Source: Candidatus Parcubacteria bacterium
GTDB taxonomy: Bacteria > Patescibacteriota > Patescibacteriia > Patescibacteriales > UBA12075
Direction: 5' to 3'
Assembly: GCA_023137275.1 (NCBI GenBank)
Contig: JAGLPO010000040.1
Location: forward strand, 1-46,318
Length of the DNA: 46,318 bases
Both the position numbers and the translations under genes were made by a program. Below the pieces are notes generated by a model. The model was not told where the DNA came from and made no database searches. It saw only the letters and a program-made list of their open reading frames with translations. How positions within the stretch are numbered: position 1 is the stretch's first letter; every line of letters starts with the position of its first letter. Positions 3,236 to 43,842 of this stretch are shown piece after piece.

Positions 3236-3252
3236 TATGATGCGGCGCAGTG

Positions 3253-3329
3253 GACGGCAGACGACAGACGGCAGACGATAGACAGCAGACAGCAGACAGC
3301 AGACGACAGACAATAGATAACAGAATATA
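3253..3329. repeat. Degenerate heptanucleotide tandem repeat, 11 units, consensus GAC(A/G)NCA
   Basis: Units read directly: GACGGCA GACGACA GACGGCA GACGATA GACAGCA x3 GACGACA GACAATA GATAACA GAATATA. Almost no T on the + strand. Lies between the stop at 3235 and the ATG at 3334. Confidence 0.9.
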
Positions 3330-3333
3330 TATT

Positions 3334-5224: not shown

Positions 5225-5265
5225 GGTTTATAATAAATTAAAATTTATAAAATAACTAAAAATTT

Positions 5266-29211: not shown

Positions 29212-29298
29212 CGGAGGTTTATTTATATTAACAAAATGTAATTATTAATAAATGGTATTGAATTAATAAAAATTAATTCAATCATCGTTTAAAAATCT

Positions 29299-32200
29299 AT
29301 GAAAAAAATCATTATGAAAAATTTTTGGCTTGCTTTAGGTTTAGCTGTTTTGCTTGTCAGCTTTACTTTAATCCAGACAAGCAGAGTGATTCTCGCTACT
29401 CACGTGGAACCCGTTTTTATTGAAGGTAATCCCAGTTGCGAAGACCTGGGATATCCGCTTGAGTACAAAATTGAATCACAGCCATACGAGGGAACATATG
29501 TTATTGATGATATTGGCAACACTATATCCGTATTTAATGAAGATCGTACAGGAGGTGAATCTTACGTTTTTGACTGGTCATCAACCCTGGGGATGGACGT
29601 GGTTTTTGTAAAAGCCGGAAACGGAGGCAATTTATACGCGTATGATCCTGAATCATTCGACGATTCAGGCCTTGAATCACCGAACCAACAGAATGGCATT
29701 AGCCATATTTCTTTCTGCTATGATTATGAATTGGATATTAGCAAAGACGCTGTCACTTCTTTTACCCGTACCCATGAGTGGGAGATAACCAAGTCAGTTG
29801 ACCAGGATACCCATTATTTGCCGATTGATGGCAGTGGAGACTCCGCTTATACGGTTGAAGTGGCTAAAACCGGATATACGGACAGCGAATGGGCAGTAGA
29901 AGGAACTATTACGATCCATAATCCGGCGCCGTTCACGGCCACAATAGAATCAGTCAACGATTCAATAAACGGAATTGAGCCAACAATAAATTGCGGCGTA
30001 AGTTTTCCGCATGAGTTGTTGTCCGGCCAGACTCTTGAATGCGATTACAGCGCGGATCTGCCGGATGGCGATCCCCGCCTTAATACGGCCACGGTTGAAT
30101 CCAGCGGACCTGTTGCCGGAGGATCAGCAGAAGCGGACGTTGACTTTTCATCCGCTGCAATAACCGAAGTTAACGCGGAAATCAATGTTACGGACACTAA
30201 TGGTGAGGCCTGGGGGCCGGTGTCTGGAGGAAATTTCTGGAGCTATGATATTGGATTTGATTGTTCTGATCCGGATCTAATATGGGAAGACAATCATGCC
30301 ATGTATGAGTTTCCAAATACCGCTGCTATTACTGAAACCGGACAATCAGACAGTGCTTCCGTAACTGTTCATTGCTATGACTGGGAGCTGGAAATCAGCA
30401 AAACAGCGAGTACTTCTTTGGTCAAAACCTATGAATGGGATATTGATAAAGATGTTTCTCCTTCCGTCTGGGATCTGCTTGATGGCAATAGCGGCCAGTC
30501 CCAATACGCGGTTACAGCCGCTAAAACAGGTTTTACGGAAAGCGGCTGGGCGGTATCCGGCATTATTACCATTCATAATCCGGCGCCGTTCACGGCCACA
30601 ATAGAATCAGTCAACGATTCAATGGACGGAATTGAGCCAACAATAGATTGCGGCGTAGATTTTCCGCATGAGTTGTTGTCCGGCCAGACTCTTGAATGCG
30701 ATTACAGCGCGGATCTGCCGGATAACTCAGCCTGCCTTAATACGGCCACGGTTGAATCCAGCGGACTTGTTGCCGGAGGATCAGCAGAAGCGGACGTTGA
30801 CTTTTCATCCGCTGCAATAACCGAAGTTAACGCGGAAATCAATGTTACGGACACTAATGGTGAGGCCTGGGGGCCGGTATCTGATACCGCTACCTGGTAT
30901 TACTATAGGACTTTTTACTGCGGCGATGATAGCGGCACGCATGATAATACCGCCACTATTACTGAAACCGGACAATCAGATGATGCTTCCGTAATTGTTA
31001 ATTGTTATCAGCTTGATGTTTCCAAGACAGCTGAAACTTCATTAACCCGTACCTGGGACTGGACAATTAATAAAACCGGCGATCAAACCGATATAACATT
31101 ATCTCCGGGCCAGCAATTTTCAGTAAACTACGCGGTTGATGTCAACGCAACCGGCATTGACAGCGATTGGTCGGCAGCGGGTAATATTGATATTCATAAC
31201 CCGGCTCCTTTTTCCGTCAAAATTAATAGCGTTGAAGATCTTGTAAATGGCGCAACAGCCGATGTTAACTGCGGTGTTACCTTTCCACACACTCTGCCAT
31301 CCGGCAATACTTTGGCTTGCTCATATAGCGCTAGCTTGAGCGACGATTCTAATCGTACTAATACGGCCACGGTTGAACTGCAGAATTATAACATTGATTA
31401 CGAGGGTTGTATAACCGAAGCCGGCACCACGGATTTTTCCGGTTCCGCGGCTGTTGATTTTAGCGCCGCTTCTGTCAGCGAAATAGATGAATGCGTTGAT
31501 GTAAATGACGATCAATATGGTGGCCTTTTAGGCGCGATTTGCGCTAACCAGGCGCCTTATACGTTCAACTACAGCATGTTCGTAGGTCCTTATAGCGATT
31601 GCGGCCAGTATCAATTTGTTAATACTTCCTCTTTTTTAACAAACGATACCGGAGTTGTCGGATCTTATTATTGGACAATTAATATTGATGTGCCGTGTGA
31701 AGGCTGTTCTTTGACTCCGGGCTATTGGAAGACTCATTCCGACTACGGCCCGGCTTCTTATGATGATACCTGGGGCTTGTTGCCAAACGACGCTGATACT
31801 GTTTTTTTCCTGTCCGGTAAGAGTTATTATGAGGTTCTTTGGACCGCCTCATCAAAAGGCAATGCCTATTATATCCTGGCTCATGCTTATATCGCGGCTG
31901 AGTTAAATGGTTTAAACGGCGCTGATCTTTCTGTTATCGGCAGTGAAATGGGCGAAGCTGAAGAATTATTTAATACATACACCCCTGAATATGTGCTTGA
32001 TAAAAAAGGCAAGAACGGTAAAGAGTTAAGGGATGATTTTATCAGTTTAGCCGGTATAATTGACGATTACAACAACGGTTATATCGGTCCGGGCCACTGC
32101 AGTGAAGAAGATGAAGTTGTCTATTCCACGGATGTTTATTCCATTTCGCAGTCAGCGAATGGGGATAGCGACGGTGACGGATTGTCTGATGATGACGAGA

Positions 32201-32448
32201 GTATTTACGGCACGGATCCCGGCAATCCCGATACTGACGGCGACGGCTATCTTGACGGCGTGGAAGTGGCCAACGGTTATGATCCCTTAGGTGAAGGGAG
32301 ATTAATTAGCGATTTGGACAGGGACAGCGACGGATTATCCGATAATGACGAGAGTATTTACGGCACGGATCCCAGCAATCCCGATACTGACGGCGACGGC
32401 TATCTTGACGGCGTGGAAGTGGCCAACGGTTATGATCCCTTAAGCTAA
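29299..32448 (+). CDS. 1049-aa secreted protein with three ~215-aa repeat domains and C-terminal thrombospondin-type-3-like Ca-binding repeats
   Basis: Signal peptide. Repeats contain W.I.K...IHNPAPF...NTATVES. The first two are ~96% identical at DNA level over 306 bp. Duplicated DESIYGTDP.NPDTDGDGYLDGVEVANGYDPL. Confidence 0.75.
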   Translation: MKKIIMKNFWLALGLAVLLVSFTLIQTSRVILATHVEPVFIEGNPSCEDLGYPLEYKIESQPYEGTYVIDDIGNTISVFNEDRTGGESYVFDWSSTLGMDVVFVKAGNGGNLYAYDPESFDDSGLESPNQQNGISHISFCYDYELDISKDAVTSFTRTHEWEITKSVDQDTHYLPIDGSGDSAYTVEVAKTGYTDSEWAVEGTITIHNPAPFTATIESVNDSINGIEPTINCGVSFPHELLSGQTLECDYSADLPDGDPRLNTATVESSGPVAGGSAEADVDFSSAAITEVNAEINVTDTNGEAWGPVSGGNFWSYDIGFDCSDPDLIWEDNHAMYEFPNTAAITETGQSDSASVTVHCYDWELEISKTASTSLVKTYEWDIDKDVSPSVWDLLDGNSGQSQYAVTAAKTGFTESGWAVSGIITIHNPAPFTATIESVNDSMDGIEPTIDCGVDFPHELLSGQTLECDYSADLPDNSACLNTATVESSGLVAGGSAEADVDFSSAAITEVNAEINVTDTNGEAWGPVSDTATWYYYRTFYCGDDSGTHDNTATITETGQSDDASVIVNCYQLDVSKTAETSLTRTWDWTINKTGDQTDITLSPGQQFSVNYAVDVNATGIDSDWSAAGNIDIHNPAPFSVKINSVEDLVNGATADVNCGVTFPHTLPSGNTLACSYSASLSDDSNRTNTATVELQNYNIDYEGCITEAGTTDFSGSAAVDFSAASVSEIDECVDVNDDQYGGLLGAICANQAPYTFNYSMFVGPYSDCGQYQFVNTSSFLTNDTGVVGSYYWTINIDVPCEGCSLTPGYWKTHSDYGPASYDDTWGLLPNDADTVFFLSGKSYYEVLWTASSKGNAYYILAHAYIAAELNGLNGADLSVIGSEMGEAEELFNTYTPEYVLDKKGKNGKELRDDFISLAGIIDDYNNGYIGPGHCSEEDEVVYSTDVYSISQSANGDSDGDGLSDDDESIYGTDPGNPDTDGDGYLDGVEVANGYDPLGEGRLISDLDRDSDGLSDNDESIYGTDPSNPDTDGDGYLDGVEVANGYDPLS

Positions 32449-32493
32449 GGAAAGCATGGCTGCTACTTTGGAAATAACGATAGTTGAGGCAAA

Positions 32494-32535
32494 CAAAAAA
32501 ACCTGCCATAAGCGCGGCTTGCGGCAGGTTTTTTC
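32494..32535 (+). terminator. Intrinsic terminator
   Basis: AAAAAAACCTGCC...GGCAGGTTTTTT. Confidence 0.8.
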
Positions 32536-32660
32536 TATTTCAAGCTACTTTTTTTATTGGACATTAGTGGCTTAAGTTTAACAAATTTGATAAAATAGAA
32601 TTAGTGTATTAAAATATTTACATAAATACGCAAATATATAATAAATAAAGTTTAAAATAA

Positions 32661-33293
32661 ATGTTTTTAAAAAAGAAAAAAAAGCCGGTTTTAAAAATTT
32701 TGGTTTTATTTTTGGAATTTTCAGCCATTGCCCTGGTTTTATATTTAATTGCTTTGCCTTTTTATCCTTCAGTTAAATATAAAACTACGATAAAAGAATA
32801 TAGCCAATTGCCGGAAGCTGAGGAAAGAGTGATCATTCAGGAGCAAGTGGCGGAATTTAAGAGCGGCTTGCCGACAAATGAATTTGATGTTTCGCCAAAC
32901 AGGGTAATAATCCCCAAAATCGGGGTTAACGCGCCTATTGTTGTTACTGAGAATTCCAAATACGGGCTTAGCCAGGGGGCCTGGCTGGTGCCAAATACCT
33001 CCACGCCTGATAAAGGCGGCAACACGGTAATAACGGGCCATCGTTTTAAATATTTGCCTCCTCATAATTTAACATTTTATTTGTTTCACAAACTGGAAAC
33101 AGGGGATTTGGTTTCAATCGTCTGGAAAGAGCGTGATTATTTATATAGAATTAAAGAAACGCGGATCGTTGAACCCACCGAAGTTTCAATCATGGATCCA
33201 ACCAAAGAACCAACCCTGACCATGTTTACCTGCCACCCGATCTATTCAACCGAGCAAAGATTAGTTGTAATAAGTGAACTGGTGGAAAGTTAA
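32661..33293 (+). CDS. Sortase-family transpeptidase
   Basis: N-terminal anchor. His in NTVITGHRF, Cys in TLTMFTCHP (TLxTC motif), Arg in EQRLVV. Confidence 0.8.
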   Translation: MFLKKKKKPVLKILVLFLEFSAIALVLYLIALPFYPSVKYKTTIKEYSQLPEAEERVIIQEQVAEFKSGLPTNEFDVSPNRVIIPKIGVNAPIVVTENSKYGLSQGAWLVPNTSTPDKGGNTVITGHRFKYLPPHNLTFYLFHKLETGDLVSIVWKERDYLYRIKETRIVEPTEVSIMDPTKEPTLTMFTCHPIYSTEQRLVVISELVES

Positions 33294-33305
33294 TACAGAT
33301 GCTAT

Positions 33306-33341
33306 AATAAAATGTACGTACATATGTACGTACATTTTATT
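33306..33341. promoter_or_regulatory. 36-bp perfect palindrome (two TGTACGTACA boxes) overlapping a TATAAT; probable operator of the AbrB-like gene
   Basis: AATAAAATGTACGTACATATGTACGTACATTTTATT read directly. TATAAT at 33303-33308. Confidence 0.6.
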
Positions 33342-33356
33342 TTTAAAATTATTTTT

Positions 33357-33527
33357 ATGAGATCATATTCATCCAAAAATATCAGAAAATTAACCAAAAC
33401 CGGTTCGGGCAGTTATTATTGCATTATCCCAAAAGAATTTATCAGGGATTTGGGCTGGAGCGAGCGGCAGAAATTTGTGGTTAAAAAAATAGGAAAAAAA
33501 ATTGTGATTGAGGATTGGAAACGGTAA
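33357..33527 (+). CDS. AbrB/MazE/SpoVT-type swapped-hairpin DNA-binding protein (56 aa)
   Basis: KLTKTGSGSYYCIIPKEFIRDLGW...KFVVKKIGKKIVIE matches the AbrB-fold pattern. ATG at 33357 preferred over the track start at 33312. Confidence 0.6.
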   Translation: MRSYSSKNIRKLTKTGSGSYYCIIPKEFIRDLGWSERQKFVVKKIGKKIVIEDWKR

Positions 33528-33694
33528 GAATACGCCGTAACGCGTTCTGGTGAATATTTTACAAAACATTAAAAATCGTTTATATTTAAGGTAAGGCAAA
33601 TATTAATTTGTGTATTAATGAATTTTAGATTTAATTTATTTATTATTAGATAAGCGCCAAAACATGTAGTTTTTGGTGTTTTTTTTGTTTTTAT

Positions 33695-36600
33695 ATGAAG
33701 TATTTATTTTCAAAAAAAGTTTTTTTAGGTTTGGTGGTTTTTGTTTTTATGCTTATAGCACAAAGCAGCACAATGGTTTCTTTGGCAGAAGATGGTGAAT
33801 TTATAGCGACAGGAAGCATGAATGTTCCTCGACTAGGACATACTGCCACGCTTCTGTCTAATGGGAAAGTGCTTATCACTGGCGGAGATAGCAGTAATAA
33901 TATCGCGAAATATCATAATTCCGCTGAACTCTATGATCCTGCATCTGGCACGTTCAGTTATACGGGCAGCATGTCAACGGGAAGGAGTGCGCACACGGCC
34001 ACATTATTAGCCAATGGCAAAGTCCTGATTACCGGGGGCATGGATCAATACTTAACTGATCATACTCTCGATTCAGCGGAGATTTATGATCCTGAAACAG
34101 GTACGTTTATCCCAACAGAAAAAATGACAACAAAACGCCAGTGGCATCAGGCTGTTTTATTGAATGATGGCCGTGTTCTGATAGCTGGCGGGTTTGACAG
34201 TCAAGCCCCTACTACATATTTAAATTCTTCCGAAATCTACGATCCTGCTACGGGCTTATTCACTCCCACGGGAAGTATGAACGTTCCAAGGATTTGGTTT
34301 GCGATGACGGCTTTAAGCGACGGCCGCGTGTTGGTTGCGGGCGGATCTGATCATTATGCGGGGTCGACTGAAACTAGCGAATTGTATGATATTTCTACTG
34401 GAATATTTTCTTATTCTGGAAATTTTGCTACTCCTAGGTGGATTCATGAAGGAGTGTTGCTTAATAATGGCGACGTGCTATTTGCCGGCGGCTCTAGTTA
34501 TGCCTCAGGCGAGACGCGTCTTAGATCGGTAGAAATTTTCAACATATCAAATAAAGAATTTTCTTCGGCAGCCGATATGAATAGTGCGAGACAGGGTCCT
34601 TCCGCGACACTTCTTGCGGATGGCAACGTCTTTGTTGCCGGAGGACACAATGGCGCTGTTATTGTAGATACAGCTGAGATTTATGATAAAGATTCCGGCG
34701 TATTTACTCTGACAAACAGTGCTATGACCACAGCTCGATACGGGCATAAGGCAACTAAGTTAAATGACAATACTGTATTATTGACTGGAGGACTAAATGA
34801 GAATAATGTCATATTGGCATCCTCGGAGAGATATGTTACCGTCCCAAAGTCGGCTGAAAATGTTTTATTCTATGATGATTTTAATGACAACGTTATTGAT
34901 TCAGCCAAATGGACCATATCGGGCAATAGTGTGTATGAACAAGATGGTGTAATGCAAGTAAAAACGGAGGTAACTGATTCCGGTGGCCATCTTTGGTCAA
35001 AATGGATGCCGATAAATGGCGTTGAACCAATTATAGTAAGCCGCAGAACATTTCAACATTTTCAAGGTAACTACATTGGACGCCATCAGTTATTATTTGA
35101 TTTAGATGGCGACAATGTAACAGATTTTGGTTTCGGCGTTGGATATGCAGATGACTCATATGTTAATTCGTCAACTGATAACTGCGCTCGGTTTGGTTTT
35201 TATTTATATGAAGGATTGAGTGGTTACGGAAGGTGCTCAACTATTCATAGCGGTCCAATTTCGCCTATATGGGATACATGGTTTGATGAAGAAATTACTT
35301 ATGATCCCGTCTCTGGAATTTTAAGTTATGCAATAAACGGCCAAGTACAAGATGCTTTGGCAGTCGGTATGTTGCCGACAACTCAGAATATCCGAATGCG
35401 ACTGCATTTTGTGGCATGGGGATGGTATACGGGGCATTACGATTATTTTGACGATATTTCGGTTGTTCAGTCAAGCCAAAATCAGCTGCAATGCTCCGAT
35501 TGGATTGATAATGACGGAGATGGTTTTGTGGATATGAATGATCCAGGGTGCCATACAGATTATGATGCGAATAATAGTGATTCGTATGATCCGTTAATTT
35601 CTAACGAACAAAGAGATGAAAATATCGGCTTGGTTGCGTATTATCCTTTTTCTGACGGCGCTAATGACGAAAGCGGCAATGAAAGACATGGCGTTGTTTA
35701 TGGCGCTTCGCCTTTCAGCAACAATATGATATCTTCTGCCTATTACTTTGATGGTGTTGATGACTATATTGATATTCCGGATCTTTATTTTAAGAATGTT
35801 ACTGTTTCCGCAATCGCGCGTTATGACCTTGAATCAGTTCCTCTAAATAGTAACGACAAGAAAGTCTCTAATATTATTAATGGGTGGAAGGATACAGAAA
35901 ATTTTTCGCTTCTAATAAGAGAATATCCTGAAGGTAAAAAATTTGTAGGCGCGTTTCATGAATATGTTGAAACAGGCGTTTGCTATAAAGAATTTAAGAC
36001 TTTATCCAATACAATTATCCAGGCCGGAGAATATTATCATGTAGCGCTTACTTATAATGGAGAGTATATTCGTATGTATATTAACGGTGAATTTGAAAGC
36101 GAAGCCATGCGATCTGATGTTGCTTATAGTTGTTCCGCAGACATTTCTATTCTGCCGGATATACGCATAGGCGTGGATAGGGTGGATTCAGGGCACTTCA
36201 AAGGATTGATTGATGAAGTTCGTTTATATGATATGGCTCTATCGGAAGCTGAAATTCAAAAACTTTATAATACTAAAGAGCCAATTCTTGAATATTCAAC
36301 TGAAGCTGGGTACAAAGACACAGAACTTGAGGAGCCGGAACCTTTCAATATAAACTTTGGGCTTCATCCCGACAAAGGTACGGCAAATAAAGACGAGTTG
36401 ACATTTAAAGTGGTGTGCAAAAACAAAGACAAGCCTGATGAAGTAAATGTTATTCTTGATCACATCGTTGGTATTGACGAGAAAAATGCTTTTTACGAAC
36501 AGTCTGTTGCGTTTATCAAACCTGATAATGGCACGATCCTATTTAGAGAGATAGACGATAACCCGCTTTATAGTTATGTTGGATATGACTCACCAGGTGC

Positions 36601-39583
36601 TGATAGAGATGGTTTTACTGAAGGAGAATCAATAGATTTTGTTTTTTCAGGATATCCCAAAAAAGAAATAAAAATCGGTCTTATGGTGGAAGAGTCAGGT
36701 TCATGGCCGGGTCTTCCGTATGTTACACTGCAACTGCAAACCTATTACGCTGACGGATCTTTTATTTCGGAAACAGAAGAAACATTTTCTTTCGAAGAAG
36801 GGTTTGATAAGGAAGAATGGGCCGGTGTTCGTATTTTGCACGAAAAAAGCGATATAGCTAAAGTAAAAATGAGCATTAAAGAAAGCAGTCAAACTGAAAC
36901 TTGGATAAGAATGTTTGAAATAATAGAATCCATACCTATGCAAGTTGACACGCAGTCAGAATCAGCTGAATTTAGAGACACTAATTATGAGAACGGTGAG
37001 CAGTACTTCGCATCATCAACTTTCCCCAAAGGAGAATATCAATTTTATTTTGAAGCAAGCAACGGAACAGAAGCGGCAAGACTTCCTGCCACAACCACGC
37101 TTTCCTTTACCACGGGGTATAATGGCATAGCTTTTTTGCCCGGGATAATGGGTAGTAATTTAATGATAGATGGTGAAGACATATGGCCATTGGAGCATGA
37201 TGTGGTAGATGATTTAAAAATGAAGAATGGAGAAAGTGATAATAAAAATGTTTATACCACAGAAGCAAGAATTAACATTCCTCCATTGGTGGATAAAAAT
37301 GGTAAGTTTATTGATTATTTAGAAAAATTAGATGTGCCAATTAAGACAATACCCTATGACTGGAGATTGGACTTTGATTCAGTTATAGAAAATGGTGTAG
37401 ATGTTGATGGAAATATATATTATGCAAGCACAACTTTATCTACCACATCTAAATCATTTGTTCTAAATACTATAAAGAATTTAAGTGAAGAATCATCTAG
37501 CGGTAAAGTGACTATAGTGGCTCACAGTATGGGGGGATTAGTTATGAAAAGGTTAATGCAAAGATTGCAAAATGACGATCCAGTGCTTAGTGAATATAAC
37601 TATTTGCTAAAAAAAATTGACAGAATAATATTTGTAGCTTCTCCTCAAATTGGCACACCGGATGGTCTAAAAAGTCTTTTGCATGGAAAGGATTTACCTG
37701 GTTTTTATCTAATTCCAAGTAAAGACGAGGTTAGGAAATTGGGCAGGGATACTATTAGCACTTGTTCACTTATTCCATCTCAAGAATATTTTGACAAGGT
37801 TAATGAATTGGATGAGAATGATAATCCGGTGCCAGTGGAAGTTATTAAGTTTGATAAAAACATAGAAAATATTAATTACGAAGATGATGAATATTTTGCT
37901 GAATATTATAATAATTATGATTTTAAAGATAATGAATATTATTTTATAAAAGATTATAATGAATTAATAGAATTTGCTACAGATCAAGAACGAGATGGGC
38001 ATGTTGAGAATTTAATTGACCCACTGGTGTTAAAACCACATATAATAAGTTCTGCCAGTAGTACCCATACTGACAAATATGGAATTGATGATTGGAAAGT
38101 GCCAAATAATTTGAAAATATACCAAATAGCTGGATATGGCAAAGATAAAACAGTAAGAGGAGTCCGCTATTTCGCAGATAAAATATGGTTCAAAAATCCT
38201 TTCACAGAAGCTAAATTTAAACTGGGGAAAGAGATTTTGCATACGCCGGAGGGCGACGAAACTGTTGTTGTGCCAAGCGCGGTATATCTTGATAATGTGG
38301 AGTCTTTTTATGTAAATTTAGAAGAAACCGGAGGAAAGCATAGCGATATAATGGATGTTCAAGAAATAATAGATTTTGTTGATAATCTGATATTTCGAGA
38401 TGATAATATTATATTAACCGATGACATTGGTACAACCTCTCCTCAAACTAGCAGAATGTACATCAGCGTCCATTCCCCAATCACAATCGGCGTATATGAC
38501 AATCAAGATAATTTTACAGGGATAATTTATGATGACGAAATTGGCGCATTAACCATTTACGAAGAAATACCCAATAGTTCTTATTTTGAAGAAGGTGAAG
38601 GAAAATATTTATCGCTTGAACCAAGACAGGAATACCATGTAGTAATGAAAGGTATGGACGAAGGTTATTTTACTTTTTTTGCAGAAGAAGTTCATGGAAT
38701 GAGTGCTGTCCAAGAAATTGCATATCATAATGTGCCTGTTAAACCCAATACTGTTGCCAGAATAACATTTAATGAAGAAAATATAGTCGGAGAATTGATC
38801 ATGGATGAAGACGGAGATGGAGAAACGGATTATTTAATACCGTCATCTGAAAGTTATTCAGACAACGAAGCTCCTACTTCTGAGATAGATTTAATCGGTT
38901 ATGAAATCAATGATTTAATTTTTATCAATGAAGTAGAAATAGTAATTAACGCGGAGGATAATAATGGAGGAGTTGGTGTTGAGAAAATAGAATATTCTTT
39001 TGATAATGGAGAAACCTGGCAAGAATACACCGATCCTATTACTATTTCAAATTACGGAGAACATACAATTCAATACCGCAGCGAAGACTGGTTCGGAAAT
39101 TTAGAAGAAACAAAGAGTGAAACCTTTTGGGTGGTTACAGCCAATGAGCTTATTGGCGATGTTCTGGGTGAGTTATTAAATTACGAAGGTGATAAAAGTA
39201 TTGTAGCAACAGCCACCAAACAAATTGAATTAGCTTTGAATGAAAAGTTTTGGTCGGATAATAACCACCTGGAAAAGAACGGGGGACAGAGCGTATTCTC
39301 GCATTTAGAAAACGCAATAAGGCATCTGGAGGGAATTGAGAGCATGGAAGAAGTAAGGCGTAAGATCGCGTTGGCAGTTGAAATTTTAGTTACATTAGAG
39401 ATGGAAGAAGTGGAAGGATTTGAGAGTGATAAGAAAAATCAAAAAGCCATTAATAAAGCCAATGATAAGATGAATGAATATTATGACGAAGCTCAAGATG
39501 GCGAGAACGCATTGGACAAAATAATTGGTTTATTCAGTAAAGTTTGGCATACTGTGATGCAGATTAAAAATTTATTAAAGTAA
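33695..39583 (+). CDS. 1962-aa secreted multidomain protein: Kelch beta-propeller, concanavalin/LamG domains, lipase-like alpha/beta hydrolase and Ig-like C-terminal domains
   Basis: Signal peptide. Six to seven Kelch-like repeats (R.GHTATLL.NGKVLITGG). LamG_3-like LVAYYPF...HVALTYNGEYIRMYINGEF...IDEVRLYDMALSEAEIQKLY. Nucleophile elbow VTIVAHSMGGLV (AHSMG as in Bacillus LipA-type lipases). Confidence 0.75.
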   Translation: MKYLFSKKVFLGLVVFVFMLIAQSSTMVSLAEDGEFIATGSMNVPRLGHTATLLSNGKVLITGGDSSNNIAKYHNSAELYDPASGTFSYTGSMSTGRSAHTATLLANGKVLITGGMDQYLTDHTLDSAEIYDPETGTFIPTEKMTTKRQWHQAVLLNDGRVLIAGGFDSQAPTTYLNSSEIYDPATGLFTPTGSMNVPRIWFAMTALSDGRVLVAGGSDHYAGSTETSELYDISTGIFSYSGNFATPRWIHEGVLLNNGDVLFAGGSSYASGETRLRSVEIFNISNKEFSSAADMNSARQGPSATLLADGNVFVAGGHNGAVIVDTAEIYDKDSGVFTLTNSAMTTARYGHKATKLNDNTVLLTGGLNENNVILASSERYVTVPKSAENVLFYDDFNDNVIDSAKWTISGNSVYEQDGVMQVKTEVTDSGGHLWSKWMPINGVEPIIVSRRTFQHFQGNYIGRHQLLFDLDGDNVTDFGFGVGYADDSYVNSSTDNCARFGFYLYEGLSGYGRCSTIHSGPISPIWDTWFDEEITYDPVSGILSYAINGQVQDALAVGMLPTTQNIRMRLHFVAWGWYTGHYDYFDDISVVQSSQNQLQCSDWIDNDGDGFVDMNDPGCHTDYDANNSDSYDPLISNEQRDENIGLVAYYPFSDGANDESGNERHGVVYGASPFSNNMISSAYYFDGVDDYIDIPDLYFKNVTVSAIARYDLESVPLNSNDKKVSNIINGWKDTENFSLLIREYPEGKKFVGAFHEYVETGVCYKEFKTLSNTIIQAGEYYHVALTYNGEYIRMYINGEFESEAMRSDVAYSCSADISILPDIRIGVDRVDSGHFKGLIDEVRLYDMALSEAEIQKLYNTKEPILEYSTEAGYKDTELEEPEPFNINFGLHPDKGTANKDELTFKVVCKNKDKPDEVNVILDHIVGIDEKNAFYEQSVAFIKPDNGTILFREIDDNPLYSYVGYDSPGADRDGFTEGESIDFVFSGYPKKEIKIGLMVEESGSWPGLPYVTLQLQTYYADGSFISETEETFSFEEGFDKEEWAGVRILHEKSDIAKVKMSIKESSQTETWIRMFEIIESIPMQVDTQSESAEFRDTNYENGEQYFASSTFPKGEYQFYFEASNGTEAARLPATTTLSFTTGYNGIAFLPGIMGSNLMIDGEDIWPLEHDVVDDLKMKNGESDNKNVYTTEARINIPPLVDKNGKFIDYLEKLDVPIKTIPYDWRLDFDSVIENGVDVDGNIYYASTTLSTTSKSFVLNTIKNLSEESSSGKVTIVAHSMGGLVMKRLMQRLQNDDPVLSEYNYLLKKIDRIIFVASPQIGTPDGLKSLLHGKDLPGFYLIPSKDEVRKLGRDTISTCSLIPSQEYFDKVNELDENDNPVPVEVIKFDKNIENINYEDDEYFAEYYNNYDFKDNEYYFIKDYNELIEFATDQERDGHVENLIDPLVLKPHIISSASSTHTDKYGIDDWKVPNNLKIYQIAGYGKDKTVRGVRYFADKIWFKNPFTEAKFKLGKEILHTPEGDETVVVPSAVYLDNVESFYVNLEETGGKHSDIMDVQEIIDFVDNLIFRDDNIILTDDIGTTSPQTSRMYISVHSPITIGVYDNQDNFTGIIYDDEIGALTIYEEIPNSSYFEEGEGKYLSLEPRQEYHVVMKGMDEGYFTFFAEEVHGMSAVQEIAYHNVPVKPNTVARITFNEENIVGELIMDEDGDGETDYLIPSSESYSDNEAPTSEIDLIGYEINDLIFINEVEIVINAEDNNGGVGVEKIEYSFDNGETWQEYTDPITISNYGEHTIQYRSEDWFGNLEETKSETFWVVTANELIGDVLGELLNYEGDKSIVATATKQIELALNEKFWSDNNHLEKNGGQSVFSHLENAIRHLEGIESMEEVRRKIALAVEILVTLEMEEVEGFESDKKNQKAINKANDKMNEYYDEAQDGENALDKIIGLFSKVWHTVMQIKNLLK

Positions 39584-39695
39584 ATCCGTAGGAACGCGCC
39601 GCGGCGCGTTCTGGTAACAAAAATAATTTTGAAAATTTGTAAAAAAGTAAAAAGTATGATATTATACAAATTAATTAACATAACTGTTAATCTTT

Positions 39696-40262
39696 ATGTC
39701 TAATATCACTAAAAGAATAGTAAAATTAGCAATTTCAAAAAAATCGGTTTTCACTACCGATGAATTGGCTTTGGCATGGAAAATTACAAACAAAAATGTT
39801 TTGCGGGTAACAATTAACAGAAGCATTAAAAATAATTTTCTTAAAAAAATCAGAAGAGGAATTTATTCATTGGACAAAAAAGAAATCAATGTTTTTGAGT
39901 TAGCCTGCAAACTTAAAAAAAGGTCATATATCAGTTTTGAAACAGTATTAAGCCAAGAGGGAATAATATTTCAATGGCAAGATAAAATATTTTTAGCCAG
40001 CGACAGGACGTCAGAGATAAAAAATAAGCAAGGGAAATTTGTTTATAAAAAAATACCTGATAAAGCATTATATAATAATGACGGAATAATTAATAAAAAA
40101 AATTATTTTATTGCCACCAAAGAAAGGGCATTGTGCGACAAAATATATAAAGACGGTATAAGCTATTTTGATGATTTATCAGGGATAGATAGAAAAAAAA
40201 TATTTAGAATAGCCAGGCTTTATAATAAAAGGCTGGAAAGAGATATTAAAAAAATATTATGA
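39696..40262 (+). CDS. abiEi: AbiEi-like antitoxin / transcriptional regulator (type IV TA, abortive-infection AbiE family)
   Basis: N-terminal wHTH-like VFTTDELALAWKI...NFLKKIRRGIYSL. 4-nt overlap (ATGA) with the downstream AbiEii-like gene. Confidence 0.55.
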   Translation: MSNITKRIVKLAISKKSVFTTDELALAWKITNKNVLRVTINRSIKNNFLKKIRRGIYSLDKKEINVFELACKLKKRSYISFETVLSQEGIIFQWQDKIFLASDRTSEIKNKQGKFVYKKIPDKALYNNDGIINKKNYFIATKERALCDKIYKDGISYFDDLSGIDRKKIFRIARLYNKRLERDIKKIL

Positions 40263-40981
40263 GAATAGATAAAGAAAAACATAAAAAAATAATGCTGAGC
40301 ATATTGGCGGATATTTCCAAAGATCCCGAGTTATCTGTTAATCTTGGCTTTAAAGGCGGTACCTGCTGTTATTTTGTTTATGGTTTGGATAGATTTTCCG
40401 TAGATTTGGATTTTGATTTGCTGGACGCGGGAAAAAAAGATTTGGTTTTAAAAAAAATGGATGAATTATTAAAAAAATACGGAACAATTAAAAAAGAAAG
40501 CAAAGAATCGCGCGTAAAATTAAAATATTCAGATGACAGCAGCGCTTTAAAGATTGATATTTCATCAAGAGATGAATTAAATCGTTTAAATAGCTATGAA
40601 ATTACAGATATTGTATCAGGCGTTCCCTTGAATATATTAAAACAAGAAGATATGTTCGCGCACAAGCTTGTGGCAGTTAAAGATAGATTTGAAAATAAAT
40701 CAGCAAATAAAATAATCGCTAATAGGGATATTTATGATATAAATTTTTTCTTTAATAAAAATTGGGGGATTAATTATGAGATAGTAGCGCTTAGAAGAAA
40801 AAAAGACGCGAAATTATATTTTAAAGAATTAATGGAATTCATAAAAAAGAATGTTGATAATAAAAATATTTTAGACGGGATTGGGGCTTTGGTCAGTGAT
40901 GAAAAAAGAAAATGGGTAAAAAATGAATTAAAAAATGAAGTTATCAAACAATTGGCTATTCAAATTAAGTCAATGGAGTAA
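40259..40981 (+). CDS. abiEii: AbiEii/AbiGii-family nucleotidyltransferase toxin (DUF1814)
   Basis: FKGGTCCYFVYGLDRFSVDLDFD matches the GG[TS]...R.S.D[IL]DF nucleotidyltransferase signature of AbiEii. Confidence 0.65.
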   Translation: MRIDKEKHKKIMLSILADISKDPELSVNLGFKGGTCCYFVYGLDRFSVDLDFDLLDAGKKDLVLKKMDELLKKYGTIKKESKESRVKLKYSDDSSALKIDISSRDELNRLNSYEITDIVSGVPLNILKQEDMFAHKLVAVKDRFENKSANKIIANRDIYDINFFFNKNWGINYEIVALRRKKDAKLYFKELMEFIKKNVDNKNILDGIGALVSDEKRKWVKNELKNEVIKQLAIQIKSME

Positions 40982-41016
40982 TTTTACGGTTTATTAGATT
41001 TTTTATTTATTTCACA

Positions 41017-41115
41017 AATCCCATCAAAAAGCCGACCCTGACCATGTTTACCTGCCACCCGATCTATTCAACCGAGAAAAGATTAGTGGTGATAAGTGAG
41101 CTGATAGAAAATTAA
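41017..41115 (+). pseudogene. Orphan 3'-terminal fragment of a sortase gene (second copy)
   Basis: 41035-41122 matches 33213-33300 (81/88 nt). Translates in frame to TLTMFTCHPIYSTEKRLVVISELIEN-stop. No upstream coding continuation. Confidence 0.85.
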
Positions 41116-41187
41116 TACAGATATTTCCGTAGGAACGCGCCGTGGCGCGTTCCTGTAAATAGCCAATAGAAGAATTGCGATTTTTTT

Positions 41188-41216
41188 TTGACAAATATCA
41201 GCTAATATGCTATAAT
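41188..41216 (+). promoter_or_regulatory. Consensus sigma70 promoter TTGACA-17-TATAAT
   Basis: Exact consensus hexamers with a 17-nt spacer, read directly. Confidence 0.75.
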
Positions 41217-41222
41217 TTTTTA

Positions 41223-41368
41223 TGTTAATAGCTTTTAGTCAAGGAATTTGAATACCCCAAGGGTGCCCCGCAGGAAATGCTCTTGGGGTGCACTTCTTTC
41301 GGGGCGTATTCCCGACTACTGTTAGTGCCCTTTGGGCATAGAATGCCCCTTTTAGGGCCAATTTAATT
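41223..41368 (+). promoter_or_regulatory. ~145-nt structured 5' leader (riboswitch or attenuator candidate)
   Basis: ACCCCAAG / CTTGGGGT 8-bp helix (41254-41261 / 41282-41289). Successive mutually exclusive hairpins TGCCC/GGGCA, GGGCAT/ATGCCC and GCCC/GGGC, the last overlapping the only purine-rich RBS-like AGGG. Confidence 0.45.
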
Positions 41369-42757
41369 ATGGCAAAAAAGAAGAGCAAAAATAAAATAAA
41401 AAAGAAATGGATAATTTGGCTGATATTAGGCGGAATTTTTTATTTGTTTAAAGATTTAGTAAAAGTTGGGAAAAAAGCAAAAAAGATTGAACAAGAAATA
41501 AAAGAATATACCAAAGAAGAAAAAAGAGAGATCAACGAATTAATGGATCACAAAGAAAGCTGGTCTAAATTTTCCAGTGATTCCAAAAAGCTTTTAAAAG
41601 ATTATTTCATACCGCACAGCGGCAACTGCCATAAGCCTAAATTTCTTCATCCAAAGTCATTAATAACAATTGCCCTGGTTGTGCTGCTTATCAAAGCCGC
41701 GACTGTCGGCTTTTTGCTTTTATCATACCCGCAGGGGGCCAGGGTATCAAGCCAGATAGTCAGCCGCGTTCTGGAGCTGGTTAACGCGGACAGGACAGAG
41801 GCCGGCTTTGGCGCGCTTGCCGTGAATCAGGCATTAGCCGCTTCCGCTTTGGCCAAGGCCGACAACTTGATCGCTAATGATTATTTTGCTCATACCTGTC
41901 CGGAAGGCAGAAAGCCCTGGGACTGGATAGATCGCGGGCAATACCAGTATTTATTTGTCGGTGAGAATCTGGCAATGAATTTTACGACCGCTGATTCGGT
42001 TCACGCGGCATTAATGAATTCGCCCAGCCACAAACAGAATATTTTAAATGACCGCTATAATGATGTCGGAATCGCCATGGTAAGCGGGCAGATCAATGGC
42101 CGGCAGACCAATGTGCTGGTCCAGCATTTTGCCGCCAGAAATAATCCCCACGCGGCTATTGCCGCGATCAAAGACAGTTCTGCCGGAACAACCAGGGAAG
42201 CGGCTCTGCCGCCCCCGGCGCCAGACATTGAGCGGGAAGAAACAGAATCAGCGCTGGCAGCGCAGGAAAAAATCGCGGTATTAAAAAAGGAAGCCTTGCC
42301 ATTGCCTCCGCCACCTCCCAGCATCGCCGAAGTACCTATGGCCAGCGAGTTTTTGCCAGCGGTTAATTTAATAAGCCAAAATCATATTGGCGGCAGGGAA
42401 GAGAATATCGCGCCTGAGTTGATTTCGGATATGGAGCAAATTAATCCGGCGGCCGCCAACATCAGTCCTAATGAAGCTCTGGAAAAGAACCTTGTAACCC
42501 GGGTGCTTTCGGTCGCGAATCCGGTTGATGAAAAACTGGTGCTAACAAGCAAGCGGGTTAAATATGCTAATTATATATTTTTAAGCATTTTAACTCTGGT
42601 AATAATTGCCTTGATCATAAATATCATTATTCGCGTAGAAATCCAGCATAAGCATGTGATCGCCCGGACTTTAGCCTTAATTTTGTTTATTTCCAGTATG
42701 ATATTTTTCAAATTTCATTATCTGGAAAGCGGAATCTCTAACATTTTACTTTTATAA
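41369..42757 (+). CDS. Membrane-anchored CAP/SCP/PR-1 (YkwD-like) domain protein with a Pro-rich region and C-terminal TM helices
   Basis: NADRTEAGFGALAVNQALAASA...DYFAHTCPEG...GENLA...MNSPSHKQNIL...DVGIA is the CAP-domain pattern. Confidence 0.75.
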   Translation: MAKKKSKNKIKKKWIIWLILGGIFYLFKDLVKVGKKAKKIEQEIKEYTKEEKREINELMDHKESWSKFSSDSKKLLKDYFIPHSGNCHKPKFLHPKSLITIALVVLLIKAATVGFLLLSYPQGARVSSQIVSRVLELVNADRTEAGFGALAVNQALAASALAKADNLIANDYFAHTCPEGRKPWDWIDRGQYQYLFVGENLAMNFTTADSVHAALMNSPSHKQNILNDRYNDVGIAMVSGQINGRQTNVLVQHFAARNNPHAAIAAIKDSSAGTTREAALPPPAPDIEREETESALAAQEKIAVLKKEALPLPPPPPSIAEVPMASEFLPAVNLISQNHIGGREENIAPELISDMEQINPAAANISPNEALEKNLVTRVLSVANPVDEKLVLTSKRVKYANYIFLSILTLVIIALIINIIIRVEIQHKHVIARTLALILFISSMIFFKFHYLESGISNILLL

Positions 42758-42780: not shown

Positions 42781-43842
42781 GTGGTCGCGATGTCGGGCGG
42801 AGTGGATTCGTCGGTCGCGGCCTGTTTGCTTTTGCGCGCCGGCTACAATGTAATGGGCGTTTTTATGCGTTTGCATGATAACTACCAGGAAGCGGAAATG
42901 GCGGCTCGGGCGGTTTGCGCGAAATTGAAAATAAAATTTTATCCAATCAGCGCCAAAGAATCGTTTGAGCGCGAAGTAGTGGATTATTTTACTAAAAGCT
43001 ACATGGCCGGCATTACCCCTAACCCCTGCGTGGTTTGTAATAAAGCAATTAAATTCGGAGTTCTTTTAAAGTTAATGCAAGAATTAGAAGCAGACTATCT
43101 GGCAACAGGCCACTACGTGGCCAGACAACAGACAACAGACAACAGACAACAGAAGAAATATAACCTGCTTAAAGGTATAGACAAGGAAAAAGATCAGTCG
43201 TATTTTTTATATACACTTACGCAGGAACAGTTGAAGTATTTACTTTTTCCATTGGGTGAATATACTAAAGAAGAGATCAAAAAAATCGCCAGGCAAGAGA
43301 ATCTTCCGACGCTTAAAACCGAGAGCCAGGATGTTTGCTTTTTGGTTAATGAGGGGAAAATTGTGGAGCATAATGATTTTTTAAAGAAACGCCTTAAGCT
43401 TAAGCCGGGGGATATTAGAATTTTATCAGGAGAAAAAATCGGGGAACACAAAGGTCTGCCGCTTTATACTATTGGGCAGAGAAAAGGGGTGGAGATCGGC
43501 GGAATCGGGCCGTACTATGTCGCGCGTTGTGATTATAAAACCAATACTCTTTACGTTGTTAATGATCCGGATGATCCGGCGCTGTATAGCGATAAGTTTT
43601 TAGTGAATAACGTGAATTGGATCAGCGGTAAAGAGCCAAAAATGCCTTATGACACAAAAGTAGTGATAAGATACCGGCACTCTCCCGTAGTTTGTAAAGT
43701 CAAAAGTTGTAAAGTCAAAAGTAATAGTTATTTGGTAGAATTAAAAAAGCCAGTGCGAGCAATAACTTCGGGCCAAAGCGCGGTTTTTTATGATAATGAT
43801 GAGGTTATTGGCGGAGGTATAATATCAAATAGAGCGGATTAA
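42781..43842 (+). CDS. mnmA: tRNA-specific 2-thiouridylase MnmA
   Basis: PP-loop VAMSGGVDSSVAA. CVVCN. ATGHY. DQSYFLY. The exact start is uncertain (GTG at 42781; the conserved KKNVVV lies upstream with no start codon). Confidence 0.9.
   Translation: MVAMSGGVDSSVAACLLLRAGYNVMGVFMRLHDNYQEAEMAARAVCAKLKIKFYPISAKESFEREVVDYFTKSYMAGITPNPCVVCNKAIKFGVLLKLMQELEADYLATGHYVARQQTTDNRQQKKYNLLKGIDKEKDQSYFLYTLTQEQLKYLLFPLGEYTKEEIKKIARQENLPTLKTESQDVCFLVNEGKIVEHNDFLKKRLKLKPGDIRILSGEKIGEHKGLPLYTIGQRKGVEIGGIGPYYVARCDYKTNTLYVVNDPDDPALYSDKFLVNNVNWISGKEPKMPYDTKVVIRYRHSPVVCKVKSCKVKSNSYLVELKKPVRAITSGQSAVFYDNDEVIGGGIISNRAD
43124..43151. repeat. Perfect heptanucleotide tandem repeat (GACAACA)x4 inside mnmA
   Basis: Read directly. 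Encodes part of RQQTTDNRQQ in a variable loop after GHYVA. Confidence 0.9.

Follow-up and report, generated by a model that had tools for sequence, protein, structure and literature searches.

A stranded sortase 3′ end at a hypervariable slot between sortase and CAP genes is best read as a scar of recombination between strains

Downstream of an intact sortase gene, beyond about 7.7–7.8 kb of unrelated genes, lies a short in-frame copy of the 3′ end of that gene, which is best read as an ordinary scar at a hypervariable slot, left by a mechanism already known. The explanation given somewhat better than even weight is that homology-facilitated illegitimate recombination joined an AbiE-bearing haplotype to an island-free one. 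At the same level of confidence, the insert would be made up of cassettes that move separately and were brought together by ordinary recombination between strains, rather than being a single mobile element, and the orphan itself would be non-functional and without a role.

The window analysed is the whole 46,318-nt contig, and its host lineage is an uncultured member of the Falkowbacteria (CPR). The features of the locus are collected in Table 1. The window sortase gene closes a cluster for sortase-dependent surface proteins, within which p893 and CLIP1051, encoded upstream, have C-termini like those of sortase substrates, with a hydrophobic segment and a basic tail; the sortase shares 93% amino acid identity with protein P0002 of locus L003, the relative referred to most often below.

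Table 1. Features of the sortase–CAP interval, in coordinates of the window
Feature	Position	Strand	Description
Intact sortase gene, 210 aa	32661–33293	+	Pfam Sortase E 3.5e-25; NCBIfam sortase_fam
Left repeat copy	33196–33300	+	Last 33 sortase codons, stop codon and 3′UTR heptamer TACAGAT; within-window BLAST E = 6e-35
Nested AbrB cassette	33301–33527	+	Extended −10 box (TGCTATAAT), 36-bp palindrome, 56-aa SpoVT/AbrB(MazE)-like ORF at 33357–33527
Decayed sortase terminator hairpin and promoter vestige of lost cassette	33528–33567	+	Hairpin at 33528–33549; TTTACA at 33558
1962-aa secreted protein	33695–39583	+	Signal peptide, Kelch propeller, LamG, LCAT-like alpha/beta hydrolase; no C-terminal sorting signal
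Second intact GC hairpin	39586–39617	+	GGAACGCGCCGCGGCGCGTTCT; directly 3′ of giant gene; origin unexplained
Autonomous AbiE cassette	39624–40994	+	Own promoter, inverted repeat TTAACATAACTGTTAA (39675–39690), AbiEi (39696–40262), AbiEii (40259–40981)
Spacer common to L041	40982–41019	+	Ends in decayed CAP promoter −35 copy (41006–41019, TTTATTTCACAAAT); junction after ...CACAAAT
Orphan sortase 3′ fragment	41020–41122	+	31 codons and stop (41020–41115), then TACAGAT; start probable
Native sortase terminator hairpin, uninterrupted	41127–41158	+	−19.7 kcal/mol, z = −3.75 (41132–41153)
CAP gene promoter	41183–41216	+	T-run, TTGACA, 17-nt spacer, TGCTATAAT; 12/12 consensus
GC-rich structured insert in CAP 5′UTR, 128 nt	41235–41362	+	z = −3.46; missing from L041 and L040
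CAP/YkwD-domain membrane protein	41369–42757	+	Pfam CAP; conserved right-hand sortase neighbour; synteny sortase-CAP-mnmA-rpsB

An ungapped alignment of 33213–33300 with 41035–41122 bears out the repeat described in an earlier note on this DNA, with 81 of 88 nt identical, including all of the first 42. The seven differences are also as that note had them, comprising Q>K, V>I (two nucleotides), S>N and three synonymous changes, with frame and stop codon kept. In the output of a repeat finder the pair is longer, spanning 105 nt with 89% identity (33196–33300 and 41018–41122), and the additional 17 nt upstream differ in a coding-like manner too (D>N, T>I, E>K and two synonymous changes). By tblastn the orphan is recovered as NPIKKPTLTMFTCHPIYSTEKRLVVISELIEN*, an in-frame sortase C-terminus of 32 codons equivalent to residues 179–210. 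Its sortase-derived part probably starts at 41020, because 41006–41019 copies the −35 region of the CAP promoter.

The 42 identical nucleotides encode the stretch around the catalytic Cys, with the motif TLTMFTCHP; 24 of the 42 are invariant in all orthologues, and in L003 the stretch is identical to either window copy at 41 positions. It was rejected as a recombination core on these grounds, and the identity pattern of the repeat is evidently explained by coding constraint, with no special recombination signal in the 42 nt. A source allele for the orphan was sought among 120 sortase homologues, where the C-terminal peptide proved too conserved for placement: it is identical at 28 of 32 residues to several distant sortases, and at 26 of 32 to the sortase of the window. 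The TAA-TACAGAT 3′UTR of the orphan is common only to the window sortase and L003. Permissive tblastn searches of 29 sortase-bearing loci found no orphan sortase ends in relatives, and a full-length, island-free sortase allele ending ...NPIKKP...ELIEN was not found among the relatives searched.

The position of the orphan is clarified by loci at which the insert is missing. In six lineages (L007, L013, L016, L017, L025 and L028) the CAP promoter and gene follow the sortase directly, which is the empty site that the earlier note had proposed to look for (sortase followed by 41123 onward), and a single gene lies between the two in L004 (Fic) and L026 (AAA_14-DUF4143 ATPase). From the orphan stop codon to the CAP −35 box there are 72 nt, compared with 75–81 nt in L028 and L025. 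Because the sortase and CAP adjoin in six lineages and the orphan is placed like their sortase 3′ end, the DNA between the repeat copies is evidently a net insertion that relatives lack, and the orphan the displaced native sortase 3′ end. This agrees with the earlier suggestion that the fragment sits at the ancestral sortase-terminator-promoter junction; the promoter at this junction is the full consensus match that had been claimed, has a TG extension (41188–41216), and is conserved in L004, L007, L025, L026, L028, L040 and L041. The ancestral order is surface-protein cluster, sortase, TAA-TACAGAT, GC hairpin, CAP promoter, CAP, mnmA and rpsB. The closest CAP relative, P0242 of L040 (88% identical), has unrelated upstream sequence and is uninformative. 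Depending on the lineage, the slot holds nothing, Fic, a STAND-like ATPase, AbrB with a giant protein, or AbiE, and toxin-antitoxin modules (MNT-HEPN, AbiE) vary upstream of the sortase as well. Rfam and tRNA scans of the window found nothing; the insert in the CAP 5′UTR, which has no Rfam match, may have arrived with the orphan-bearing haplotype.

At the left end, the homology between the copies does not stop at TACAGAT, where the earlier note had ended the repeat. Past the AbrB cassette it starts again at the hairpin, with 33528–33549 equivalent to 41132–41153. The duplicated unit consists of the sortase 3′ end, TACAGAT and the hairpin, and AbrB is nested in the left copy, where it splits TACAGAT from the terminator hairpin; the two are contiguous in the orphan copy. 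Evidently the AbrB cassette was inserted within the sortase terminator and is nested there, and since the duplicated unit runs on beyond it, the left repeat is not an element boundary. The 36-bp palindromic operator assigned to this regulator is indeed a perfect palindrome (33306–33341), but the AbrB label itself is weak, as the Pfam MazE/SpoVT-AbrB match (E = 0.0057) lies below the curated cut-off; a PDB sequence search with the ORF gave nothing significant.

Comparison with L003 and L026 assigns the promoter vestige beyond the decayed hairpin to a lost AAA_14-DUF4143 ATPase cassette. In L003 the intact hairpin (7518–7539) is followed by TTGACAAACCTTAG..., a promoter region close to that between the sortase and ATPase genes of L026, and L003 retains the ATPase promoter together with a gene remnant closely matching L026. 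L003 also features AbrB and an LCAT-type giant protein, and has neither AbiE nor the orphan. Its giant protein is 1427 aa long and shares with that of the window only the LCAT region (45% amino acid identity; 84% nucleotide identity over 800 nt) and the 5′ leader (92.6%). The 1962-aa protein reported from the window stands, as a secreted protein with Kelch, LamG and LCAT-like domains.

The GC hairpin reported after the orphan was likewise found (41132–41153). Within the 46-kb window it is intact only after the giant gene and after the orphan, and there are three or four copies in all, every one at this locus. The preferred reading of the hairpin is that of a sortase terminator which was duplicated locally; a role as an attC- or REP-like site of recombination was rejected, the copies being few and confined to this locus. 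The scar reading leaves the copy after the giant gene unexplained.

The AbiEi/AbiEii module named in the earlier note is well supported (PADLOC E values of 1.9e-38 and 6e-54, respectively; Pfam AbiEii 4e-19), and the two genes overlap by 4 nt (ATGA, 40259–40262), so that the pair qualifies as an AbiE type IV toxin-antitoxin system. The same cassette is found before the sortase in L025 (92% nucleotide identity), before a tRNA synthetase in L030 (86%), before GAPDH in L038 (88%) and before the CAP promoter in L041 (98%). AbiE is evidently an autonomous 1.36-kb promoter-to-stop cassette, known from five contexts including the window, and a nested passenger here. In L025 it is bordered by a duplication of about 42 nt of AbiEi 5′ sequence. 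A different AbiE lies directly upstream of a full-length sortase in L004, and in L026 and L025 the start of the sortase gene is fused to scars of AbiE deletion. GC3 is 0.25 in AbiE, versus 0.41–0.48 in the flanking core genes, and is heterogeneous within the insert (0.25–0.36). The proposed comparison of composition between island and flanks therefore finds AbiE AT-rich, but the first 19 kb of the window are AT-rich too, and the comparison is not decisive.

The right-hand joint can be compared with L041, a 1-kb contig from a sibling sample that is 98% identical at the nucleotide level and carries AbiEii, the same spacer, the live CAP promoter and CAP. Its spacer continues as TTTTTTTGACAAAT-ATTAGC, which is the live CAP promoter, with neither the 177-nt orphan block nor the insert in the CAP 5′UTR. 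In the window, the 14 nt directly 5′ of the orphan match the −35 region of the CAP promoter at 12 positions, and the two substitutions are found in neither live promoter copy; the orphan block is flanked by a 14-nt direct repeat of this region. On its left side the joint follows L041 through the −35 box, and on its right side it is sortase from codon 180 onward, for which the island-free parent allele was not recovered. Because L041 is without the orphan block and the −35 repeat bounds that block, the comparison points to an illegitimate joint of two haplotypes rather than an attR. The direction of change between the window and L041 is one that we infer. Deletion between the two 14-nt repeats could instead have removed the orphan block from L041, but the −35-like sequence beside the orphan would then be a coincidence, estimated at roughly 1 in 100.

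Under the favoured explanation, one sub-lineage would have gathered promoter-bearing cassettes between the sortase and the CAP promoter, as L026, L003 and L041 suggest. The AAA_14-DUF4143 ATPase, since lost, would have come first, followed by the small AbrB-like gene between TACAGAT and the hairpin, then by the LCAT-type giant secreted protein, and last by the AbiE toxin-antitoxin directly before the CAP promoter. Island-bearing DNA would then have undergone recombination with a haplotype from the same sub-clade that lacked the island. Homologous pairing at one end would have been in CAP, in the sortase or upstream of it, and the other end would be an illegitimate joint between ...TTCACAAAT and CCCATC..., leading from the island's CAP promoter −35 box to codon 180 of the other sortase. 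The outcome would be one intact sortase upstream and the last 31 codons of the other allele stranded downstream, where the fragment would keep its own 3′UTR, terminator, promoter and 5′UTR insert. No recombinase would be required, or encoded by the segment. Indirect signs of DNA uptake and recombination are that the identity of the cassettes is much higher than that of the DNA beside them: AbrB with its TACAGAT flank (33294–33527) is 99% identical to L003, versus 91% for the adjacent sortase, and AbiE is 92% identical to L025, versus 72–82% for the flanks there. These bacteria are taken to be competent for DNA uptake, as CPR genomes in general suggest.

Alternatively, a circle carrying the accessory genes and about 140 nt of sortase 3′ end with terminator could have entered by a single homologous crossover in the sortase 3′ end, in the manner of Campbell, so that the homologous segment was duplicated, with later loss of the right copy in L041. 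Direct repeats of the gene end, 3′UTR and hairpin do flank the insert, recombination between them would rebuild the ancestral junction exactly, and other cassettes of the clade have short flanking duplications, such as the AbiEi 5′ sequence in L025 and TTTTTTGACAAA at the ATPase of L026. However, this route leaves the decayed CAP −35 box exactly at the 5′ edge of the orphan unexplained, demands a donor circle in which AbiE was already neighbour to a truncated sortase, and has to contend with a composite cargo whose parts differ in age. We consider it unlikely.

It is improbable that the locus passed through a stage with two sortases, in which an L025-like AbiE-sortase-CAP arrangement gained a second sortase and its downstream genes upstream of AbiE, and the downstream sortase, now redundant, lost its 5′ 530 nt. 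The AbiE cassettes directly upstream of full-length sortases in L025 (the same cassette) and L004, as well as the deletion scars fused to sortase starts, are in its favor. Yet none of 27 independent loci (the 29 sortase-bearing loci minus copies of the window's own contig) has two sortases, each giving a single tblastn hit and only the own contig a second; tandem full-length sortases, which the earlier note had named as evidence for simple duplication, occur in no relative. Furthermore, the sequence from the AbiEii stop to the orphan is the AbiE-CAP-promoter spacer of L041 and not the AbiE-sortase spacer of L025, and the orphan matches the L025 sortase end at only 80% although AbiE matches at 92%.

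On the surface, the geometry fits the discrete attL/attR-like element of the earlier note, an island that targets the sortase 3′ end site-specifically and brings a replacement end, with its integrase lost or supplied in trans. The replacement end would lie on the left and the orphan on the right, beside the native terminator and promoter; relatives show empty sites, and the left junction is common to L003. Against this, no recombinase, transposase or relaxase family was found by Pfam among all window ORFs of at least 100 aa and the AbrB-like ORF, in keeping with the earlier remark that no integrase lies between the copies, and no tRNA, phage or plasmid signatures were found. The cargo was never seen as one unit: sortase-based scans of GTDB genomes and JGI metagenomes did not find it elsewhere, and neither blastn of 33301–41017 against phage and plasmid collections nor IMG/VR scans with AbiEii and sortase gave a second copy or mobile-element relatives. 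L003 has AbrB and the LCAT giant protein, whereas L025, L030, L038 and L041 have AbiE only, and the AbiE and AbrB cassettes are independent, with separate distributions and ages. The repeats are not at the ends of an element, since homology extends beyond the proposed att site and the right copy is preceded by the −35 remnant common to L041, which itself lacks the orphan; the would-be core is the conserved active-site coding already described. The locus thus shows the empty target site of an att-bounded island, with no recombinase among the window ORFs, no exact repeat ends and no unit-wise presence, and the reading as a discrete element, to which we attach a low probability, fails.

An undescribed CPR system for cassette shuffling, acting in trans or without a dedicated recombinase, is given a very small chance of having left these footprints. 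Promoter-to-stop cassettes (AbiE, AbrB, ATPase) at gene ends, short border duplications of the target end or promoter, and the GC palindrome after three units could be cues to it, and if it were true, the sortase 3′ end with the hairpin would be one preferred recombination site. Three further candidates were rejected. An integron-like cassette array would need an integrase, which is not seen, and the 22-nt GC palindrome after three units lacks attC architecture, being a short perfect hairpin, and is missing from the AbiE and AbrB cassettes found elsewhere. TTTTTTGACAAA as a cassette junction site is a generic T-run and −35 box of strong promoters, also present before MNT genes. A polymorphic toxin locus (Rhs/CDI/T6SS) is not indicated by a duplicated end that is the conserved sortase catalytic C-terminus, nearly invariant among orthologues. 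Finally, a contig chimera of two strain haplotypes is hardly credible: although the contig is metagenome-assembled and at least two haplotypes occur in sibling samples, the putative parents share at most about 6 nt at the junction, too little for a k-mer graph, the −35 remnant has substitutions in neither live promoter copy, and the ENA scaffold and NCBI MAG contig have the same locus arrangement.

Homology-facilitated illegitimate recombination is documented in naturally transformable bacteria (PMC5361080 and references therein), and has been proposed for the orphaned 3′ ends, or C-terminal displacement, of Rhs, CDI and T6SS loci (Jackson et al., 2009; Poole et al., 2011; Kirchberger et al., 2017; as cited in PMC5361080). 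As in those strain-variable loci, an intact copy of the gene is kept here and an older 3′ end lies downstream as an in-frame fragment beside its native flank; no recombinase is involved, one homologous anchor and one illegitimate joint being sufficient. Unlike in them, the displaced end belongs to a housekeeping-type sortase and is its conserved catalytic C-terminus, with no toxin or immunity gene and no functional diversification, and there is a single orphan rather than an array, the gained material being unrelated cassettes. Islands and prophages that integrate at gene 3′ ends with a duplicated att site, such as islands that target tRNA or tmRNA genes and restore the end of the gene, similarly have the gene end on both sides, a left copy that keeps the gene intact, and empty relatives; they differ from this locus, which has no integrase seen in the window, no precise repeat boundary, no unit-wise presence, and parts with independent histories. 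The AbiE pair resembles type IV toxin-antitoxin and abortive-infection modules in its wHTH AbiEi, nucleotidyltransferase AbiEii, gene overlap and promoter inverted repeat, but unlike typical AbiE it behaves as a passenger that precedes five different genes or promoters across several lineages of Patescibacteria. The variable content between a conserved gene pair recalls defence islands and integration hotspots, but here the genome is the very small one of a CPR bacterium, and the slot shows no mobile-element machinery.

The AbiE cassette, almost unchanged before different housekeeping genes, is a by-product perhaps more useful than the orphan, and a second is that AbiE deletion scars now provide the promoter and start codon of some sortases. 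The locus also carries a caution, in that a duplicated gene end is not always an att site; relatives and a sibling strain altered the interpretation here. Ultimately, it offers a base-level example of how very small genomes of uncultured Falkowbacteria acquire and rearrange genes for defence and for surface or secreted proteins, by way of cassettes nested between two conserved genes and recombination from strain to strain, at a site where mobile-element machinery is not seen.

The window lies on the metagenome-assembled contig DAOWBO010000003.1 of GCA_030634025.1, equivalent to ENA scaffold ZHAN22-2_SAMN18200496 scaffold_50, and its closest named relatives are Candidatus Falkowbacteria and Parcubacteria. 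Comparison of the window proteins by tblastn with loci fetched around sortase homologues reveals a conserved row of a CLIPPER-type surface protein, sortase, a CAP-domain protein, mnmA, and rpsB, which persists to sortases of ~50% identity. The CAP gene directly adjoins the sortase gene in six distinct lineages (relatives' loci L007, L013/L021, L016/L023, L017, L025, and L028), and in two lineages a single gene lies between them, encoding Fic (L004-L006) or an AAA_14-DUF4143 ATPase (L026). The CAP promoter (T-run, TTGACAAATAT..., TGCTATAAT) is kept in all close relatives. From the stop codon of the orphan, the second, partial sortase 3′ end, to the -35 box is 72 nt, compared with 75-81 nt from the real sortase stop in L028 and L025. 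This matching distance, together with the ancestral sortase-CAP adjacency, places the orphan at the site of the ancestral sortase end, and the 7.8 kb between the two copies is extra DNA, an insertion. The insertion, the displaced native end, and the ancestral sortase-terminator-promoter junction proposed in the earlier note are therefore borne out. Two tandem sortases in relatives, the contrary case, were looked for with tblastn and not found: all 27 independent loci bearing a sortase gave a single hit for it.

Other positions in the row also vary. A second variable slot lies between mnmA and rpsB, where the window carries two FMN-reductase-like genes (43988-45164) that are absent from L004 (14705-14894), while L007 (3635-4123) has a PBECR3-domain gene there instead. 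The slot 5′ of the sortase is as variable as the downstream one: it holds a gene for a 1049-aa TSP3-repeat protein in the window (29216-32640), MNT-HEPN and a 63-aa ORF in L003 (5201-6634), and MNT followed by AbiE in L004 and L025. Between the sortase and Fic genes of L004 (10660-10810) is a GC-rich element with the ends GTCATCCTG...CAGAATGAC, resembling a MITE- or REP-type repeat.

The duplication of the sortase 3′ end itself is confirmed. Segments 33213-33300 and 41035-41122 align without gaps at 81/88 nt, the first 42 nt without any difference, and a repeat finder extends the pair to 33196-33300 and 41018-41122, a length of 105 nt with 89% identity (BLAST E = 6e-35 within the window). Translated in frame, the orphan reads NPIKKPTLTMFTCHPIYSTEKRLVVISELIEN*, the sortase C-terminus with its catalytic TxxTC motif. 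Its stop codon is followed by TACAGAT, ATTTC, and a hairpin, whereas the left copy and the L003 locus have the AbrB cassette interposed between TACAGAT and the same hairpin, which is intact in L003 (7518-7539) and decayed in the window (33528-33549). Since TACAGAT and hairpin are contiguous in the orphan copy and split in the left one, the duplicated unit comprises the sortase end, 3′UTR, and terminator, with AbrB a later insert nested in the left copy. The GC palindrome of the hairpin, GGAACGCGCCGYGGCGCGTTCC, is confined within the 46-kb window to this locus, with one copy following each of AbrB, the giant gene (39591-39612), and the orphan, and it also occurs at the L003 site. The copy directly 3′ of the giant gene has a 5′ flank like that of the orphan copy and a 3′ flank like that of the AbrB copy, and may be a record of earlier recombination at the terminator. 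As for the 42 identical nucleotides, which encode TLTMFTCHPIYSTE, 24/42 are invariant across all orthologues examined, and L003 differs from either window copy at just one position (41/42). The identity reflects coding constraint within the sub-clade, and the stretch was rejected as a crossover core because it is conserved coding sequence to which L003 is equally close.

The cargo between the copies is a mosaic of separately mobile cassettes. Window (33294-33527) and L003 (7284-7517) share the AbrB cassette at 99% identity, compared with 91% for the adjacent sortase, which indicates either a recent cassette exchange or patchy recombination within the sortase. The two sortase genes diverge strongly in patches, over nt 121-160 (55%) and over the final 33 nt (79%). 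L003 encodes an LCAT-type giant protein with N-terminal domains unlike those of the window protein, and neither AbiE nor an orphan is found on its contig. L003 also retains, between its AbrB and giant genes, the promoter of the ATPase cassette found whole in L026, along with a remnant of that cassette; in the window just a vestige of its -35 box is left.

AbiE, here an ordinary module of its kind, forms a self-contained ~1.36-kb cassette (39624-40994) running from its own promoter, which carries the inverted repeat TTAACATAACTGTTAA, to just beyond the AbiEii stop codon. At 86-98% nucleotide identity the cassette stands before five different downstream genes or promoters in various Patescibacteria lineages. 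It precedes a full-length sortase in L025 (607-1957; 92%, with flanking genes at only 72-82%), GAPDH in L038 (4-1310; 88%), and the CAP promoter in L041 (54-828; 98%), and in L030-L037, from other Patescibacteria, it ends 10 nt before a class-I tRNA synthetase (86%; L030 7363-8723). No recombinase or terminal repeats were seen in these copies. In L026 and L025 the sortase start is made of AbiEi-derived codons (MPDIIKKILKLAIF...), directly preceded in L026 (1-93) by the AbiE promoter, and L004 (8334-8411) retains part of the AbiE promoter with the start codon, 5′ of a different AbiE module of its own. Such remnants have the look of cassette-loss scars that today provide a promoter and start codon.

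The earlier note, which had read the segment (33213-41122) as one att-flanked element, is thus only partly supported: its geometry and displaced native end are right, and its mechanism, unit, and boundaries wrong. The parts of the cargo are distributed separately, and homology of the copies resumes past the proposed att end, at the hairpin beyond AbrB. In line with the note, which had seen no integrase in the segment, no window ORF of at least 100 aa matches a recombinase family, and neither a tRNA nor any phage or plasmid similarity was found. Three of the four defining features of att-flanked islands were tested and found lacking, and membership was rejected for want of a recombinase, exact repeat ends, and a single unit.

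The most informative relative is a 1-kb contig, L041, whose source is the sibling sample SAMN18200491. Across AbiEii, the adjoining 27-nt spacer, the CAP promoter, and the first part of CAP, L041 and the window share 98-99% identity, and the L041 spacer leads straight into the live CAP promoter, ...GATCTTTTATTTTTTTGACAAATATTAGC.... The window has two additional blocks, one of 177 nt (orphan, TACAGAT, hairpin, 33 nt, and the promoter T-run and -35 box) and a 128-nt GC-rich insert in the CAP 5′UTR. The 14 nt directly 5′ of the orphan (41006-41019), TTTATTTCACAAAT, match the T-run and -35 box of L041 at 12/14 positions, and this similarity ends exactly at ...AAAT, with sortase codon 180 (CCC) beginning there. 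The simplest reading of these alignments is that the orphan junction is a joint between two haplotypes. One would have had AbiE and spacer directly before the CAP promoter; the other, island-free, would have run sortase, TACAGAT, hairpin, promoter, 5′UTR insert, and CAP. Since the TAA-TACAGAT-hairpin 3′UTR is common only to the orphan, the window sortase, and L003, the island-free haplotype probably came from the same sub-clade. The joint would lie just past the -35 box of the AbiE haplotype and within the sortase of the island-free one. One homologous anchor and one illegitimate joint would constitute homology-facilitated illegitimate recombination, with DNA uptake the presumed supplier of the partner; which side served as anchor, and the polarity of the window-L041 difference, are likewise deduced.

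Polarity could possibly be the reverse, with the window-like state ancestral and the block removed from L041 by a deletion between the 14-nt repeats. Such a history would favor a Campbell-type or two-sortase origin, but reduces the -35-like sequence at the orphan's edge to coincidence. That CPR bacteria have a cassette system working in trans or independently of a recombinase is improbable, with little that points to it specifically.

The remaining features described in the earlier note are present (see table), save that only the small ORF of its AbrB-like regulator stands firmly.

Features of the segment and its flanks in window coordinates
Feature	Position	Remarks
Sortase gene	32661-33293	intact
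AbrB cassette	33301-33527	
Perfect palindrome, 36 bp	33306-33341	
AbrB-like small ORF		weak, sub-threshold SpoVT/AbrB-MazE match
1962-aa secreted (giant) protein	33695-39583	signal peptide; Kelch, LamG, LCAT-like hydrolase domains; sorting signal absent
AbiEi/AbiEii		overlapping gene pair
Orphan	41020-41122	
GC hairpin	41132-41153	
CAP promoter	41188-41216	12/12 consensus match
CAP gene	41369-42757	

An extended -10 box precedes the 36-bp palindrome, AATAAAATGTACGTACATATGTACGTACATTTTATT, and a T-run follows it. The palindrome is nearly unchanged in three more distant Parcubacteria genomes (L011 ~5240-5310, L012 ~7100-7170, L020 ~3720-3790), lying 3′ of a ClpB/ClpC-like gene in L012 and L020, with a MraY/WecA-like gene next in L012. 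Because it recurs in other gene contexts, it is not specific to the AbrB-like gene, and its role may be that of a conserved operator (GTAC-N4-GTAC) or of a terminator. The 128-nt insert (41235-41362), between the CAP promoter and start codon, is absent from L040 as well as the 98%-identical L041; the region 41220-41368 folds at -53.8 kcal/mol (z = -3.5), and the insert has no Rfam match and no further copy in the window or fetched loci. Elsewhere, tandem heptamers (CAGACRA)n occur at 3248-3331, at the start of ORF 3250-4608, and at 43112-43160 within the coding region of mnmA, encoding ...ARQQTTDNRQQKK... in the latter. A large imperfect inverted repeat (22356-22475/22746-22866), with one pair of arms of 93 nt (76%) and another of 49 nt (84%), occupies a region of few genes between those for surface proteins.

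According to PMC5361080 and its references 41, 42, 44-47, homology-facilitated illegitimate recombination is described in naturally transformable bacteria and is also the explanation offered for 'C-terminal displacement', by which Rhs, CDI, and T6SS loci come to hold orphaned 3′ ends. A polymorphic toxin locus was rejected here, as the displaced end is a conserved enzyme end and no toxin domain. The kind of mechanism would be the same as in those scars, but the host group is unusual and a conserved enzyme end takes the place of a toxin domain. The locus thus probably adds a further case to a familiar class of scar, in which the 3′ end of a gene is displaced at a strain-variable hotspot.
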